A stretch of 32,465 bases of DNA from a virus (Duplodnaviria > Heunggongvirae > Uroviricota > Caudoviricetes), in IMG/VR virus record IMGVR_UViG_3300035520_000350, positions 1-32,465 of that record; one strand, given 5' to 3'. This document shows, in pieces, positions 6,568 to 12,943 of the stretch. The notes under the pieces are model-generated. The model saw only the letters and a program-made list of their open reading frames with translations, did no database searches and had not been told where the DNA came from. Positions within the stretch are counted from its first letter, which is position 1. The number at the start of each line of letters is the position of its first letter. The translations under genes were made by a program, and so were the position numbers.

Positions 6568-7575
6568 TTACTTATTCTTCTTGTAATCCTGAACAAGATT
6601 ACCACAGCAAAGTGGAAGCTCTGCTTTAGCTGCTACGTCTACGATAACCTTTAAACCACAGCTCTCTACTCTTTCCTTGATCTTATTCATGTTCTCCCAG
6701 TTCCACTGTATTGCATCCTCAAGACCATGTTCTTTAGTAGCGTTTGTTACGTTCAAAGGTGTAATCTTTACACAGAACACATCAGGGTTCAATCCGTATA
6801 ACTTATCCGGATTAAGCTCCCATCCTGCTCCACAGATGAAGTTTAAAGTAATAAGTCTATTGCTGTTAGGCAAATAGTTAAACTCTTTCTTCATCTCTTC
6901 TATAGTTACTACATTAGCTCCACCAAACAAAGCTCTTCTTTCATCTTCGTTAGTAGAGTTTGTAGAGATCTGGATATGCATGAAACCATCCAGATATGCT
7001 TTAGTATACATTACATCTTCCTTAAGTACTTCTATCGGTCCTTTACCAAACACATTTACCTTAGGTAAGATAGTGTTGTAGCAAGGTAAGAAAGTGAATC
7101 CCTCTCTGTAATGTTTCATATCACTCATTACTTCGAGGATATTCTTCCAATTGTACTGTGGTTCTCCCATTCTGGCAAAACCTACCTTGATCTTGTCACT
7201 CTTAGTAACTTCCGGATGCTGAGCAAAGACAAACTCTAACTGCTCCCACATCTCTTCTTTACTAAGGTTTCCTCTGAAACCAAGTTCCGGTACTAAGCAG
7301 AACTGACACTTCTGTGGGCAACCATACTGGGTGCTGATAGCAGTTAGCCACTTCTCCTCATATGGTACAAGATTCTGCTTAATCAAAGATTCATCATCAG
7401 TCATGATGATTTCCTGAGACTTACCTTTTGTGTTTACATCCTGCATGGATGTAGTCTCGATATAGAAGTCTTTCTCCTTGTTGTATAACACGTATACACT
7501 TCCGCTAGGATACTTATACTCCTTTACTAACTCAAAGTGTTTACTTCCCAGTCCATTGTTTTCTAAGGTCTTCAT
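6568..7575 (-). CDS. RlmN/Cfr-like (class A) radical SAM methyltransferase homolog
   Basis: IETT (RlmN VETV/E105), ISTQYGCPQKCQFC (SSQVGCxxxCxFC), GFRGNLS, RMGEP (MGEP), C-terminal CCGNL (ACGQL/C355). Start reassigned to ATG 7575 (GGAGAGG RBS). Confidence 0.8.
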   Translation of the reverse strand: MKTLENNGLGSKHFELVKEYKYPSGSVYVLYNKEKDFYIETTSMQDVNTKGKSQEIIMTDDESLIKQNLVPYEEKWLTAISTQYGCPQKCQFCLVPELGFRGNLSKEEMWEQLEFVFAQHPEVTKSDKIKVGFARMGEPQYNWKNILEVMSDMKHYREGFTFLPCYNTILPKVNVFGKGPIEVLKEDVMYTKAYLDGFMHIQISTNSTNEDERRALFGGANVVTIEEMKKEFNYLPNSNRLITLNFICGAGWELNPDKLYGLNPDVFCVKITPLNVTNATKEHGLEDAIQWNWENMNKIKERVESCGLKVIVDVAAKAELPLCCGNLVQDYKKNK

Positions 7576-7981
7576 TTGCAATCCTCTCCTTTGCTTCATA
7601 TAGTATTCTATAAGCTGAACTCAATCCTGCTCTATCATCAAGCAGAATATTGTAGTATATCTTATCACCAGTGAATGGTATATAAGGTGGAGACTGGTTT
7701 ACATAGTCTACCTTAATACCAACACTTTCACAGTAATCAAGCATAAACTTGTTCTTTGATTCATCACAACAAGTGCTTAGAATCAGTGTACAACCCATAC
7801 TCTTACATTCCTTAAGTAAGTTTATTACTTTAGTATAGGTATACCCCTTATTGTAGTAATCATATATCACATTATCAAAGTCAAATGCGATAATGATACA
7901 GTTATGAGCTCTCCAGTTCTCAACTAATCTATCTACACATAGTTTATCATTGAGATATGGATCGTCTAATGGATATTCCAT
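7541..7981 (-). CDS. HAD-superfamily phosphatase
   Basis: Motif I IAFDFDNVI, motif II LST, motifs III/IV KIYYNILLDDR; AAGGAGG RBS. Confidence 0.8.
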   Translation of the reverse strand: MEYPLDDPYLNDKLCVDRLVENWRAHNCIIIAFDFDNVIYDYYNKGYTYTKVINLLKECKSMGCTLILSTCCDESKNKFMLDYCESVGIKVDYVNQSPPYIPFTGDKIYYNILLDDRAGLSSAYRILYEAKERIANEDLRKQWTGK

Positions 7982-7996
7982 TAATCTAGTCCTCCT

Positions 7997-8731
7997 TTAA
8001 GAACAAGACTGTTCGATGTCTTCATACTTCTTCATCCATATCTTTCTTTCTTCTTCACTATTGCCAAAGAAATACGGATACAGAGTATTGTTTGTTGTAA
8101 AGAAGTAGTTATGATACTCGCCATCCGGTAAGAACAATACTCCTTCTTCTGATATCTGGTCCTTTATAGCATTGAAGTTTTCATAAGCCTTTCTGTTACC
8201 AAACATCTGTCTAAATGTAATCTGCTTAACTCCAATACCTTTCATTGTCTCTATATAAGCTAAGCAGTCATCTTTAGTCATTCTCTCATTAAGTACATTG
8301 ATGACTCTTACCTTAGTACTTTCTTCAATATAGGGAAGCATTATTCTAAGTCTATTTATCATAAACTGATCATCCTTCTCTATACTGAGAGCAATCTTCC
8401 GGAACAATGGTACAAGTTGTGAACTCTTATCCGGAATGATTCTTGTATGTACGTCTAATCTCTTACCATAAGCTCTACCAATATCATAGACCTTATTGAA
8501 GAAATAAAAGTTGTCTTTATATCCATAGAATGGATCTCCTCCACCAGAGAGATTTATTGTCGGTGCATTTGATTCAGATACACACTTCTCTAAGTAGACC
8601 CAGTCTATCTTACTTACATCTGTCTTTTGATTCTGCAATATCGGATGATGTTTACTGATACAGTACTTACATCTCTGATCACATCCGAAATTGGTTATGA
8701 TAGTGAAACCTTTATTAGTTTCAGTATACAT
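7997..8731 (-). CDS. Radical SAM protein of unknown reaction
   Basis: ITNFGCDQRCKYC (CxxxCxxC) and LSGGGDP. Start reassigned to ATG 8731 (GGGAGG RBS). Confidence 0.8.
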   Translation of the reverse strand: MYTETNKGFTIITNFGCDQRCKYCISKHHPILQNQKTDVSKIDWVYLEKCVSESNAPTINLSGGGDPFYGYKDNFYFFNKVYDIGRAYGKRLDVHTRIIPDKSSQLVPLFRKIALSIEKDDQFMINRLRIMLPYIEESTKVRVINVLNERMTKDDCLAYIETMKGIGVKQITFRQMFGNRKAYENFNAIKDQISEEGVLFLPDGEYHNYFFTTNNTLYPYFFGNSEEERKIWMKKYEDIEQSCS

Positions 8732-8758
8732 AATGTACTTCCTCCCTTTCACAAGCAA

Positions 8759-8792
8759 ATAGAGTAGGAAGCCGTTAGACATCCTACTCTAT
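8759..8792. terminator. Hairpin downstream of the RNAP beta-prime gene
   Basis: ATAGAGTAGGA-N12-TCCTACTCTAT; same AGAGTAGGA arm as 6530-6559. Confidence 0.6.
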
Positions 8793-8806: not shown

Positions 8807-9058
8807 TTAATATCCTATACCGTAGATCTCTTTCTGCCTAGCTTTAACAGCCATGATCTTAGCTTTCTGAGTCTTGTTATAGTTGTTTCTTCCTAACCAC
8901 ATCAATGTATTAGCATTAATGATTGTATCACGTTGTACTAATACAGATGCATTGATCTTACCATCGTTCCTAGATATATACATAGCATTACGAGGATTGA
9001 ATATCTCATAACACCTCTCAAAGAACTTACGGTTTATGATCAAGAAGATATTGAGCGC
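8807..9058 (-). CDS. rpoC: RNA polymerase beta-prime N-terminal subunit, exon 5 (ALNIFLIINRK...YGIGY*)
   Basis: Extends the 78-aa track ORF 5 codons upstream to GCG(9058), just after a terminal G (9059). Joins in frame to DYDGD to give DYDGD-ALN. Confidence 0.85.
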   Translation of the reverse strand, partial: ALNIFLIINRKFFERCYEIFNPRNAMYISRNDGKINASVLVQRDTIINANTLMWLGRNNYNKTQKAKIMAVKARQKEIYGIGY

Positions 9059-9433
9059 CGTATTAGTCCATTGTTTCCAATGGTACTGACTATATTTTAC
9101 TATCTATAAAGATAGAATGCTCTTTCCAGCTACGTATCAATAGTAGCCGTACTCCTCCTCAAGAGGATAGTCGATACAGGTTTCTATAATAAAGTACATT
9201 ATAGTTTCCCACGGTAGTACCAAGCTAACCATATCTAAGATATGGTCCTTAGGCTTTCTTAGAGAGCTACTTCGTCTATGGTCTAAGGGTATATATCTCC
9301 TCTCGGCTTCATATACCAGTCTTATTCAACTCTTACCGTTAGCCATTATAATATAATGACCCCTGTGATGAACAGGAAAAGCATTTTCTGACACACCTAG
9401 TACCTAATTGCACCTATTTAGGTACGATCTGGT
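9059..9433 (-). mobile_element. Group I intron 4 (375 nt, no ORF), immediately after the catalytic DYDGD
   Basis: P7 strands ATCGACTAT (9175-9167) and ATATAGTC (9095-9088); P9 CCATTG-GAAA-CAATGG (9083-9068); 5' exon ends in U; terminal G. Confidence 0.85.
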
Positions 9434-9538
9434 ATCACCGTCGTAGTCCGCCGCCAAAGGTGGTAATATTTGCAGCGGAGTTTGCATTACAAAATCGTCA
9501 TTATAACCAACACAGAACATTTGCATAATTGAGCCGTA
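9434..9538 (-). CDS. rpoC: RNA polymerase beta-prime N-terminal subunit, exon 4 with the catalytic motif
   Basis: Translates YGSIMQMFCVGYNDDFVMQTPLQILPPLAADYDGD, matching bacterial beta-prime NADFDGD. Too short for the ORF track. Confidence 0.9.
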
Positions 9539-9958
9539 TATCTCTTCATACTAGTTCGCTACACTAGTACAGTTCTCTTATGAACTTCTATAGTTGTTGT
9601 CTATACGTTGAGACTATATCATCACCTTTTACCTATTTATATAATAAGCAGTCAGGTGTCCCTCCACTTCGAGTATACTATACTCTACATAATAGTCGTT
9701 GAACCTTTATCTATAATAAATATAGATACTTGGTTGCTGATTGGACATTGTTAACAACACTTAGGACCTATACTCCTATGCAAAAAAGTATAAGCTTTTA
9801 TTTCACCATATGTCATCTCTCTACTTGTTTCTGACTTTCGTCTCCTTTTATTAAGGCAAGAGAGCCTTAGCCTATTCCAGCTAGATCTTCTCAAAAAGAG
9901 TTAGATCATTCAAAGGGATTATACCACTATATTTCTATAATAGCAGCCTACGTAATCC
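9539..9958 (-). mobile_element. Group I intron 3 (about 420 nt; boundaries uncertain by 3 nt)
   Basis: AGCTGGAA (P), CAATCAGCAACCAAG (Q), GGTTCAACGACTA (9705-9693, R), GATGATATAGTCT (9623-9611, S). Confidence 0.88.
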
Positions 9959-9982
9959 AGCAATGGTCGGATTTCTATTAAT
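9959..9982 (-). CDS. rpoC: RNA polymerase beta-prime N-terminal subunit, micro-exon 3 (INRNPTIA)
   Basis: ATT AAT AGA AAT CCG ACC ATT GCT supplies the NRxPT motif (E. coli NRAPTL) missing from all neighbouring segments. Confidence 0.85.
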
Positions 9983-11207
9983 TGCACGATTTTAGGTATC
10001 ATTACGCACCTAATACACTTCGTAGAGTGTAGAGTAGTCTTTCACTACTTTCCAGAGCACATCTTTATCTGCCATATACTGTTACCATATATGGCAGATA
10101 GCAATCGTTTCTATTTAATGGATTTACTTAGAGCTAATATCACTCTAATACCAACCCCTAACGTTTGGGTTATACTATACTCAGTTCGTGTATACTATTG
10201 TATACCTTATTTTCAAAGAGCCTGGGCTATTTTCAGGTTGCCTCCCATTTAGATATTTCTATCAATGCTCTTATCTACCTTTCTATGCTCGTTGTACTAG
10301 AAATTATATTCACAGGTAATACTCCTCCAAGTTTTATACTTAATATTCTGAACTTGACCAAGATTAACCCCAGTAACTTCTGATATCTGTTTTAAAGTAA
10401 GATTTCCTTCTTGCAGACATTCGCAAACTGACCTAACTTGTTCTTCTGTAAGTTTAGAACTTTCTTCGATTTTTCCTGTATGAGGATGCTTTAAACCAAG
10501 TCTAATAGCTTCTTTTTGATTGTAAGAGCCATCACACCATTCCAAATTATCTGGATTGGCAATTCCTGGATAATCAATCCAGTTAGCAGTCTTTCTTCCA
10601 TTGATATGGTTAACCATCATATCCTCACAACCTGGAAAATATCTGAATGTAAGCATCATAAGACGATGTACTCTACAAGTGTGAGCCATACCATCTTTAA
10701 ACCTTAATACAGCAATTCTATATCCTGGACCATCCCATGAAGTACTCATAAAACGATTCATATAAACATGCCATATTCTTCCGAATGTACTTATTGCGTA
10801 ATAAGGCAATATTCCTGGAGCTGCTTGATCTGTTATCATTTCAAACCTTTCTCCTGGTAACCATTCTGGAACTACAAATACTGGTGATTGATGCTCCAAA
10901 TCATACTTAAATTCTTTAGATATTTTACCCATTTTAAGAAACCTCCTTGTAATGTATTTTAGGGTTATAGTAAGGTTTCTTAATTTGTTATAATATAATT
11001 CTAGTGCGGACTGTGGATTGTTAAAGTACTTAGGCTTACTATCACCATATACCATCCATAAGATTTGTTTCTAGGTTTCCCAAGCCTAATAAAATATTTC
11101 ATTTATTAGGCACTTATGGCTTTACCAGTTCCCCGCTTTTAGATTGCTGTTTCACAGAGAATCACTTCCCTGATGACCATTATTCAAAACCCAATGAATT
11201 ATTGTTT
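9983..11207 (-). mobile_element. Group I intron 2 (about 1225 nt) carrying an HNH homing endonuclease; boundaries uncertain by up to 4 nt
   Basis: AAAGCGGGGAAC (P) and GTCCGCAC (Q) lie 5' of the ORF. ACAACGAGCAT (10295-10285, R) and AAGATGTGCTCT (10065-10054, S) lie 3' of it, followed by a GAAA-capped P9-like hairpin. CTAGAATT/AATTTCTAG closes a stem around the ORF. Confidence 0.88.
10297..10932 (-). CDS. Intron-encoded HNH homing endonuclease (NUMOD4/I-HmuI-like N-terminus, C-terminal HTH)
   Basis: YAISTFGRI, RVHRLMMLTF, VNHINGRKTAN...NLEWC...YN. Start reassigned to ATG 10932 (AAGGAGG RBS). Confidence 0.9.
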   Translation of the reverse strand: MGKISKEFKYDLEHQSPVFVVPEWLPGERFEMITDQAAPGILPYYAISTFGRIWHVYMNRFMSTSWDGPGYRIAVLRFKDGMAHTCRVHRLMMLTFRYFPGCEDMMVNHINGRKTANWIDYPGIANPDNLEWCDGSYNQKEAIRLGLKHPHTGKIEESSKLTEEQVRSVCECLQEGNLTLKQISEVTGVNLGQVQNIKYKTWRSITCEYNF

Positions 11208-11462
11208 AATCACTGGCAACCCTTCAGGTGTACTGTTCTTGATTATTGTGTCGATTATACTTGCCACTCTATCGTCTTTTGTTGCTGTAGCACGATATAC
11301 TACATCATAAGCTTCAGAATAACTCATGTTATACAACCTGTTGAGTATATTGATAATCTGTGGTTGAAGCATTATCACAAGCATAGTATAAGGTAAAGTA
11401 ACCTGATCAATTCTTAATGATGGCTTCTGTGAGATTACCGCTCTACCCGAGAAGTTATATCT
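11208..11462 (-). CDS. rpoC: RNA polymerase beta-prime N-terminal subunit, exon 2 (RYNFSGRAVI...EGLPVI)
   Basis: Matches beta-prime RVDYSGRSVI...PVLL; begins right after a terminal G at 11463. Confidence 0.88.
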
Positions 11463-11799
11463 CCTTCTGTTCATTCAGATTCGTCACATCTGAACCAAAA
11501 CTCTAAAACTTCTAGAGTTGCTATATATTTCTATATAGAGCAGACTATATCTTCATCCAAGTATATACTTGGAGCTAACCATTTCGATTTGAGTCGACTT
11601 ATATTGCACCAATAATGCGACACCCCTTTTAATGACTTGGGCTCTACGTACTTACGTACTAGTCGTTGAACGCTTCTTATATATTGATATATAAGATTCG
11701 CAGCTAGTTCTCTTATAGACACTTCTCAAATCTATAAGCTTTTCCAGCATAAGGAAAGTCGGCATCTATATATTACTACATAGATGGGCTAATCTCTTA
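11463..11799 (-). mobile_element. Group I intron 1 (337 nt, no ORF)
   Basis: P1 GGU|UAA-GAGA-UUA-GCC with U.G at the splice site; TATGCTGGAAA (P); TTCAACGACTAG (11670-11659, R); AAGATATAGTCTG (11553-11541, S); GAAA-capped P9 (11538-11521); terminal G. Confidence 0.9.
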
Positions 11800-12855
11800 A
11801 CCTGCAACTAAAGATCTTAACTGCCCTTTCTTACCAGAGCAGATAGCAATAATCTCATCATGTAATTCCATGAACTTCATCTGTAACTTATACAACATTT
11901 GATTCTTCTTCTTTGGATCTCTCTGCATACGAGTCTTATCAGCGTTAATACGATGAACGTGTTTGTTGATCATATTATAGATACCATTGATAGGCTCGTA
12001 ATACATGTTCTTGTCTCTGATATCTGCTGGTCTAAGATGTGTAGTAAACACCGGAATAGAATGAGTGAATACTTTATCTCTATCCTGCATAATATCGTCA
12101 TAATAGTCTTTCTTCTTCGGATTCTTCTTGAGATAGTATTCCATAATCTCATCGAATCTCTGATAGAAAGCCATCATGCCAATTCCAAAGAATGGTTCAT
12201 TAGAAGGAGGGTTGATTACCTCACTTTCATGACCGTTCTGATCAATCTGTACATTATAGAACAAGATGTTCTGTAGTACAAATCCTTTCTTGGCATTCTT
12301 CTGCTCTACGTTAATCTTTGATTGACCAAAGAAAAACTCAAGAGACTTATAAATGTCTGGATGTATTACATGGTACTGATCTTTCAATACTACCCATCCA
12401 AACATCTCGAAGTTGTCGTCTACATACTTACATTTAGTATGACACTTCTCACAGACGATCCCATGATTTATACGGCTCTTAAGATTACCGCACTGACATG
12501 AGTATCGATCTGCAAACGGATTCAAGTCACCTAACTTCTGTCCATACTTGGTACTGAAGATTCCATTAGGATCTTTGATATCCTTCTTGATAGTTGCTTT
12601 TGGAGAAGATATGATGAATCCATTACCAGTGGCAATGTCATGATCTTTCTCTTCATCCAAGTTTATCCGTTCAAGTATAGTGTAATAATCGTACTCAGGA
12701 GAATACGGATAAGAGTACGATATGTTGATAGTAACTTCATTAGGTTTCTTTTCTTCATTGTCTTCCACAGGTGGTGTAATGAAGTTCTCACTACCAACAA
12801 ATGAATTCAACAGATCTTGTATATCATCGGTTAGAATTCCAGTTGAATCACTCAT
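11800..12855 (-). CDS. rpoC: RNA polymerase beta-prime N-terminal subunit, exon 1
   Basis: Zn finger CQCG...CEKC, IPVFTTHLRP, ends GKKGQLRSLVAG (E. coli GKQGRFRQNLLG); AAAGGAG RBS. Confidence 0.9.
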
Positions 12856-12943
12856 ATATTATGACTCCTTTCTCTTAATGATATAATTGGTTTGAACTTA
12901 AACTACCCTCCTTTCAAAGTTCGTATCTATAGTTTATTATTAA

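Follow-up and report, generated by a model that had tools for sequence, protein, structure and literature searches.

The window (the whole 32,465-nt stretch of phage DNA analysed) contains on its minus strand, from position 12855 to 8807, what appears to be one gene encoding the N-terminal half of beta-prime, a subunit of a multisubunit phage RNA polymerase. This gene is predicted to consist of five exons separated by four group I introns (Table 1). Each exon has a length divisible by 3, and the joined exons form a 1692-nt reading frame that encodes 563 aa and a stop codon with zero internal stops. A first-pass annotation of this DNA had proposed these exon coordinates and their in-frame joining to 563 aa; translation of the joined exons reproduces both exactly. 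The 384 nt that it gave for the active-site stretch equals the sum of exons 2–4.

Table 1. Predicted features of the intron-split polymerase gene (window coordinates).
Feature	Position	Strand	Basis or remark
Shine-Dalgarno AAGGAG	12865..12870	(-)	9 nt upstream of ATG 12855-12853; read from sequence
Exon 1, 352 aa	11800..12855	(-)	phrog_2987 'RNA polymerase beta subunit', E 2e-25
Intron 1, 337 nt, group I	11463..11799	(-)	RF00028 58.3 bits; P1; last base G (11463)
Exon 2, 85 aa, RYNFSGR...GLPVI	11208..11462	(-)	Pfam PF00623 and homolog alignment
Intron 2, 1225 nt, group I	9983..11207	(-)	Consensus fold and homologous introns; last base A (9983)
Intron 2 P10 guide UAAU	11182-11179	(-)	
Intron 2 P1 guide GGUCAU	11178-11173	(-)	
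Intron 2 P2	11172-11155	(-)	
Intron 2 P3	11148-11142 and 10106-10100	(-)	
HNH homing endonuclease gene, 211 aa	10297..10932	(-)	phrog_59 HNH endonuclease, E 1e-22
Intron 2 P7	10290-10285 and 10060-10055	(-)	
Exon 3, 24-nt micro-exon, INRNPTIA	9959..9982	(-)	Protein and DNA homolog alignment
Intron 3, 420 nt, group I	9539..9958	(-)	RF00028 22.3 bits, E 0.014; last base A (9539)
Intron 3 P10 guide CGUA	9952-9949	(-)	
Intron 3 P1 guide GGCUG	9948-9944	(-)	
Intron 3 R element	9703-9691	(-)	
Intron 3 S element	9620-9609	(-)	
Exon 4, 35 aa, YGSIMQMF...LAADYDGD	9434..9538	(-)	Catalytic aspartate triad; homolog alignment
Intron 4, 375 nt, group I	9059..9433	(-)	RF00028 27.2 bits, E 5e-4; last base G (9059)
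Exon 5, 83 aa + stop, ALNIFLIINRKFF...	8807..9058	(-)	Homolog alignment

Exon 1 contains a zinc-binding Cys cluster and has GKKGQLRSLVAG at its C-terminal end. Exon 2 is matched by PF00623 (RNA_pol_Rpb1_2) with 29.9 bits against a cut-off of 25.3. The joined protein contains GKKGQLR..RYNFSGR and NRNPT, exon 4 contributes AADYDGD with the triad, and the protein stops 83 aa past DYDGD. Three of the introns and the micro-exon would fall within the catalytic double-psi barrel, in the part bounded by the NRNPT segment and the DYDGD metal-binding loop. The predicted spliced protein includes the stretch PVIINRNPTIAYGSIMQMF. A search of the 243-kb genome found no further copy of the gene. The expectation that automated annotation would miss the active site is borne out by public gene calls, in which the exons figure as individual truncated ORFs (352 aa and 91 aa in the window phage and its relatives). 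A split annotation as short ORFs is also present in about two thirds of the 120 closest homologs. The catalytic subunit of the phage's own transcription machinery is in this form invisible to gene callers, and its exons are databased as unrelated short ORFs.

In intron-less relatives the gene is a single continuous ORF. The spliced protein aligns without gaps at every junction to ten intron-less homologs (metagenomic, 523–558 aa). In a blastn search, one intron-less coding sequence (L016:6001-7638) is collinear with the five exons, which it matches in order (query pieces 52-998, 1000-1253, 1256-1278, 1279-1383 and 1396-1625). The third of these pieces recovers the micro-exon (23 nt, 87% identity, local E 0.019), and in the relatives L020, L018 and L003 the bases of exon 3 are found as uninterrupted exon. 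The best solved matches of the intron-less homolog P0006 are chain d of 7S00 and 7S01 (E 2e-37), deposited as 'DNA-directed RNA polymerase beta' subunit' and presumably the structures of the AR9 non-virion polymerase in PMC9209446. P0006 also matches PhiKZ 7OGP (E 5e-14). In tblastn searches, matches are found to phiR1-37 g274 and to the AR9 beta-prime N-terminal gene (28% identity to the latter). The enzyme would correspond to the AR9 non-virion polymerase, and the phage, with its 243-kb genome, would belong to the jumbo phages of the AR9/phiR1-37 type.

The reading of all four gaps as group I introns, also made in the first pass, is supported by Rfam, P1, core elements and the fold of intron 2. 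The curated gathering score of RF00028 is 50 bits; intron 1 alone reaches it, and introns 4 and 3 have lower-scoring matches (Table 1). Introns 1, 3 and 4 contain the R and S core elements. P1 places a U.G pair at the 5' splice site of all four introns, and introns 2, 3 and 4 also allow a P10 to be drawn. The exon and guide strands of P1 are GGU/GCC (intron 1), GUGAUU/GGUCAU (intron 2), UUGCU/GGCUG (intron 3) and UGAU/GUCA (intron 4, guide region 9397-9388). These helices are short, with three exon pairs in intron 1, four in intron 4, and five positions including one mismatch in intron 3. Intron 1 is 100% identical in the sister strain L003. Intron 4 has a copy in the topoisomerase gene (genome positions 183,091-183,425) that is 91.5% identical from nt 41 onward. 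Intron 3 has paralogs elsewhere in the genome with a common layout (P10 guide, P1 guide, P2), and its ends are identical in the independent assembly L029. Two scans of viral contigs found no copies of intron 3 at the same site.

Intron 2 has ORF-less homologs at the same insertion site in L021, L022 and L003. Because Rfam returned no match to these ORF-less copies, nor to intron 2 itself, a comparative fold was used. The consensus from three copies of intron 2 contains P2, P3, P4, P5, P6, P8 and P9, with 32 compensatory pairs. P7 of intron 2 is a variant, GAGCAU/GUGCUC, that covaries with GAGUAU/GUACUC. For further copies, an exact-pattern scan of metagenome contigs found none, and a viral-contig scan returned only the window phage and an unrelated DNA-polymerase intron. 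With the read-through tail of intron 2 as a protein query, the only matches were P0042 and P0087. The ORF in intron 2 lies between the two P6 strands, in the P6 loop, and comes with a ribosome-binding site of its own, AAGGAGG. The L003 allele lacks the stretch 10303-10998, and a contig from an RNA library joins 10302 to 10999, i.e. it lacks the endonuclease gene. The family match, the location in a peripheral loop and the presence/absence polymorphism mark the ORF as a predicted HNH homing endonuclease.

Judged from its sequence, the locus is very probably one beta-prime N-terminal gene with four group I introns, spliced to a 563-aa product. The gene would be transcribed as one pre-mRNA in which every intron folds. 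Guanosine would be used to cut after the U of the P1 U.G pair, and the flanking exons, aligned by P10, would then be joined to give the protein. As the first-pass annotation proposed, splicing may gate production of the catalytic subunit. RNA contigs at the locus contain intron pieces and one unspliced boundary between intron 1 and exon 2. In the public RNA contigs, which come from four animal-gut metatranscriptome runs and cover small shares of the locus, no exon-exon joint is present. It is highly improbable that the gaps are not introns at all and represent separately translated polymerase fragments or an assembly artefact: jumbo-phage polymerase subunits are naturally split and callers list exons 1 and 2 as separate ORFs, but the 8-aa and 35-aa exons lack both start codons and ribosome-binding sites, group I cores are present in the gaps, intron-less relatives have one continuous ORF, and several samples yield this architecture in independent assemblies.

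The 3'-terminal guanosine (omega-G) is present in introns 1 and 4. Introns 2 and 3 end in A and are termed variants rather than plain group I members because they lack omega-G. Their end positions are fixed by P10, homologous introns and exon homology. The aligned last base of intron 2 is G in L021 and L022 versus A in the window and L003, and P1, P10 and P7 are otherwise alike. The intron-2 A also occurs in another six contigs, drawn from six samples (two contigs of the window strain type, four of the sister type), and the intron-3 A recurs in one. No compensating change was found in the guanosine pocket of P7, where the pocket pair is still G-C. A miscalled G caused by nearby base-modification genes was considered and rejected, as Pfam gives just two weak radical-SAM matches and the six contigs agree on the intron-2 A.

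With the G-C pocket unchanged, a terminal A is expected to make exon ligation much slower, so introns 2 and 3 may splice poorly. The spliced coding sequences of the window and L003 differ by 14 synonymous and 2 non-synonymous codons, and by this comparison the gene is under purifying selection. From the G-C pocket together with this selection, we infer that both introns still ligate their exons at the terminal A. The hexacoral mitochondrial ND5-717 group I intron lacks a terminal G, yet its exons are correctly ligated in vivo (PMC6545197). For the window, that two unrelated mobile introns flanking a 24-nt exon complete ligation with a 3'-terminal A and an ordinary G-C pocket is about an even bet.

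The near universality of the terminal G and the unchanged P7 pocket pair would also fit a reading in which the A cripples ligation of intron 2, and perhaps of intron 3, leaving the gene inactive or barely expressed. Alternatively, intron 3 could use the G at its position -4, three bases upstream of its end, which keeps the frame and lengthens the product by one residue, an extra Ile. Both are unlikely. Both strains behind the 14 to 2 ratio have the intron-2 A, the allele recurs in the six further contigs, and the subunit bears the catalytic triad with no second gene copy found. For intron 2, no alternative keeps the frame if the conserved 5' site is retained.

A somewhat less likely reading places introns 2 and 3 at shifted canonical sites that are cut after U and end in G. 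Intron 2 would be cut after CCAGU and end in ..AAAUCG, intron 3 would be cut after ACCAUU and end in ..GAAGAG, and the product would have equal length and read PVAINRNPTIIYGS. Both pairs of shifted sites exist and keep the frame (a chance of about 1 in 16 per intron), and the U/G rule holds in every other intron examined in the window genome and its relatives. They were discarded on the evidence of P1, P10 and homology. In the conserved P1, the shifted U of intron 2 pairs with A, not G, and that of intron 3 falls at a U.U mismatch. P10 pairs solely with the exon starts AUUA and UACG, and the alternative start AUAU has 0/4 pairs. The homologs of intron 2 end exactly one base ahead of AUUA. The junctions with A-ending introns recreate PVIINRNPTIAYGS, which is uninterrupted in the closest relatives. 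All exon boundaries of the first-pass annotation are the best supported ones, with P1, P10 and homologous introns backing the A-ending pair. Two further approaches to the boundaries were dropped: locating the 3' site by the length of the tail that follows the last hairpin (a paralog's tail is 22 nt) and automated junction scoring, which was too noisy to contribute.

If introns 2 and 3 do ligate at A, the terminal G would be dispensable in their ribozymes. Ligation might then be aided by the contiguous P1/P10 guide, a neighbouring intron or a protein factor, and a slow second step could set the splicing order or the amount of polymerase. Two natural terminal-A introns with an unchanged G pocket in a selected gene provide a direct way to test whether exon ligation requires a terminal G.

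The sister strain L003 is 99% identical to the window. It lacks the intron-2 endonuclease gene but has, 7 nt downstream of the intron-3 site, another intron that does bear an endonuclease. Among the relatives, AR9 included, introns occupy about ten sites within roughly 130 codons. The introns are probably mobile, given the HNH gene in intron 2 and a site occupancy that varies among sister strains and relatives. The reciprocal endonuclease-bearing introns, 31 nt apart in two co-occurring strains, may reflect intron-mediated competition between strains; such a role for the window introns is a conjecture from this reciprocal endonuclease content. The locus shows how far homing introns saturate one catalytic motif, with occupants replaced between 99%-identical strains.

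Bacillus phage AR9 (NC_031039, BI022_gp269/gp270) has a gene of the same family, annotated as two joined pieces with an HNH endonuclease ORF inside. The AR9 insertion is in the same catalytic loop, after DYDG, at a site 3 nt upstream of the window's intron 4. AR9 has one intron and no micro-exon, whereas the window gene has four introns. In PhiPA3, the gp210 intron of an RNA polymerase beta-subunit gene, a putative group I intron, adjoins conserved catalytic residues of a jumbo-phage polymerase and contains an HNH endonuclease that mediates competition between co-infecting phages (PMC11620839). The PhiPA3 case differs from the window in subunit and phage lineage and has a single intron. Three group I introns with exon skipping are present in orf142 of Staphylococcus phage Twort, and up to three introns in Bastillevirinae polymerase and terminase genes. 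Unlike these, the window gene encodes a catalytic subunit of RNA polymerase and has four introns, two of them separated by a 24-nt exon, with splicing that is predicted. Gut jumbo ('Jug') phages, which belong to another clade and have genomes of 360-402 kb, are described as carrying numerous group I introns in each genome, with essential genes interrupted by them; metatranscriptome reads confirmed about half of the introns tested (PMC12880540). The parts of that account considered here make no mention of four-intron RNA polymerase genes or a terminal A. The ND5-717 intron likewise lacks a terminal G. However, that giant intron is organellar and inherited vertically, and host factors are thought to help it, whereas introns 2 and 3 of the window gene are small, mobile, adjacent phage introns from different families. 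An intron-split polymerase gene is of a kind already known; the density of introns and the terminal A are new.

The minus-strand reading frame that starts at 12855, preceded by an AAGGAG ribosome-binding site, runs to a stop at 11797 after ...GKKGQLRSLVAG. The first-pass annotation joined this frame to four further exons, and all five, each a multiple of 3 nt, do join in frame: 1692 nt encode 563 aa with no internal stop, and exons 2 to 4 combined come to the 384 nt claimed. The exon 1 protein has 605 homologs, metagenomic without exception, and 38 of the 120 closest are full-length (516-558 aa). When the joined protein is aligned with intron-less homologs, it is gap-free at all four junctions in ten full-length sequences. 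In blastn, the coding sequence of a relative (L016) matches all five exons in order, exon 3 at 23 of its 24 bases. This homology in protein and DNA argues that the exon structure is real, far beyond chance. Automated annotation does overlook the split gene, as had been expected, and exon 2 appears in public databases as a separate 91-aa protein (8 contigs). Within the window, a 91-aa ORF begins at an ATG in the 3'-terminal part of intron 1 and takes in exon 2 plus two codons of intron 2; it is an artefact of annotating a split gene.

Exon 2 matches Pfam RNA_pol_Rpb1_2 over the family cut-off, and exon 1 matches the phage family 'RNA polymerase beta subunit'. The tblastn matches include Yersinia phage phiR1-37 g274 and the AR9/PBS1 non-virion polymerase beta-prime N-terminal gene. 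For an intron-less homolog (P0006), the top-ranking solved structures are 7S00/7S01 chain d (E 2e-37), which we take to be those of the AR9 non-virion polymerase in PMC9209446; the PhiKZ non-virion enzyme comes next. The source virus record is 242,978 bp long and rated 99% complete, with 35.9% G+C, and the window makes up its first 32 kb. A search of this genome gave no further copy of the gene. The polymerase gene is followed directly by two genes with CxxxCxxC motifs and weak radical-SAM matches that stay below threshold.

The first-pass annotation read all four gaps as group I introns. A search with the Rfam group I model (RF00028, threshold 50 bits) recovers intron 1; introns 3 and 4 fall below the threshold and intron 2 has no match. 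Introns resembling 3 and 4 are present at other loci of this genome and in known Staphylococcus, Bacillus, Clostridium, and Enterococcus phages. For intron 2, the sister strain (L003) and two distant relatives (L021 and L022) have ORF-less homologs at the identical position. Their consensus fold contains P2, P3, P4, P5, P6, P8, and P9; 32 of its pairs keep pairing through two-sided changes, and P7 likewise covaries. The 211-aa ORF of intron 2 lies between the two P6 strands and is an HNH endonuclease by family match. Judged by the model match, the R and S elements or, for intron 2, the covarying fold, all four gaps are group I introns.

Coordinates of the split polymerase gene and associated features (window positions unless G000:C1, the 243-kb genome, is named)
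Feature	Coordinates	Strand	Length	Remarks
Exon 1	12855-11800	-
Exon 2	11462-11208	-
Exon 3	9982-9959	-	24 nt	micro-exon
Exon 4	9538-9434	-
Exon 5	9058-8807	-
Intron 1	11799-11463	-	337 nt	RF00028 58.3 bits, over curated threshold
Intron 2	11207-9983	-	1225 nt	no Rfam match
Intron 3	9958-9539	-	420 nt	RF00028 22.3 bits; R and S core elements present
Intron 4	9433-9059	-	375 nt	RF00028 27.2 bits; R and S core elements present
Exon 2 ORF	11199-11474	-	91 aa
Genes with weak radical-SAM matches	6568-7599; 7997-8782	-
Topoisomerase intron	G000:C1:183,083-183,425			outside window
More group I introns	G000:C1: ~124.5k, 131.0-131.4k, 147.5-148.2k, 150.3k, 166.1k, 205.2-205.6k

We infer the splicing mechanics of the four introns from sequence and comparison. 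The U of the P1 U.G wobble precedes each intron, and G is the last base of introns 1 and 4. In intron 2, P1 pairs exon GUGAUU with guide GGUCAU, and P10 pairs UAAU, immediately 5' of the P1 guide, with AUUA at the start of exon 3. Both features are kept in L021 and L022, where the last intron base is a G that immediately precedes AUUA. The aligned terminal position is A in the window and L003, and the P7 pocket pair remains G-C. The conserved P1 and P10 pairings and the homolog ends fix the intron 2 junction. Two intron 3 paralogs (DNA polymerase gene, 205 kb; 131 kb) share the fixed order 5' site, P10 guide, P1 guide, P2. Read by this layout, intron 3 has P1 UUGCU/GGCUG and P10 UACG/CGUA, which fixes the proposed junction and its terminal A. 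Shifted sites for introns 2 and 3 would follow the U/G rule and give the same product length (PVAINR...TIIYGS). They are rejected because the alternative 5' U is outside the wobble pair, P10 does not fit, and the originally proposed junctions reproduce PVIINRNPTIAYGS, the uninterrupted exon in the closest relatives. Those junctions are borne out by P1/P10, by homologous introns or the paralog layout, and by exon homology. Public RNA contigs matching the locus contain no exon-exon junction.

The intron 2 terminal A recurs in another six contigs, spread over six samples (window strain type, two; sister type, four), and the intron 3 A in one further contig. Between the spliced coding sequences of the window and L003, 14 codons differ synonymously and just 2 non-synonymously; the gene has therefore been under purifying selection in lineages sharing the intron 2 A. 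No in-frame alternative 3' site for intron 2 goes with the conserved 5' site. In Tetrahymena, a G-to-A change at the intron terminus strongly impairs the second step when the pocket is unaltered, so efficient splicing of introns 2 and 3 is not assured. The hexacoral ND5-717 intron is without a terminal G, yet its exons are correctly ligated in vivo (PMC6545197), a natural precedent for what is proposed here. Productive ligation at the terminal A in both introns has about an even chance.

The exons of the sister strain (L003/L004) are about 99% identical to those of the window. Intron 1 is identical there, intron 2 is without the endonuclease gene, and intron 4 shows 97% identity. The strain has no intron 3; 7 nt downstream of that site, after YG plus one base, it carries a different intron (1053 nt) with canonical ends and its own HNH gene (34% identical). 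The JGI samples that contain the two strain types have neighbouring accession numbers. A 176-nt contig from an animal-gut RNA library joins window 10207-10302 to 10999-11074, with 4 bases replacing the endonuclease gene, so that community contains the ORF-less intron 2 allele. In the relatives L035-L038 (L035:4001-4800), an unrelated third intron lies exactly at the intron 2 site and ends ..AAAAGG, with terminal G, before ATTAAC. Exon 2 is 89% identical there and the intron 3 site is empty. Introns of other relatives lie at or near the intron 1 site, or after NRN, TIS plus two bases, AAD, AAD plus one base, DFD, and DGDT plus one base; that of AR9 follows DYDG. Across the 120 nearest homolog ORFs, first breaks cluster at the intron 1 site (31), in the NRNPT..YG zone (28), and at AAD (6).

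The phage is intron-rich overall. A topoisomerase/gyrase-B-like gene, split at DADVD|GAHI, contains a copy of intron 4 with canonical ends and guide GGAU/GUCC; from nt 41 onward the two share 91.5% identity. Only the first ~40 nt differ, the part holding the guide sequence, and the copy looks like the intron 4 ribozyme retargeted to another gene. The DNA polymerase is split by a group I intron at MMDFD|YKSLYPS, and at about 147,853 of the genome two introns, both with canonical U/G ends, enclose a 23-nt micro-exon.

Introns were said to be known in RNA polymerase genes of phiKZ-related phages, and group I introns with HNH genes do occur in jumbo-phage polymerase genes, in AR9 and MarsHill (database records) and PhiPA3 (PMC11620839). 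Gut jumbo phages rich in introns have also been described (PMC12880540). Genes of Twort and the Bastillevirinae have up to three introns (PMC11878797), whereas this gene has four. New here are the four introns, a 24-nt exon within the catalytic barrel, strain-level turnover, and two terminal adenosines.
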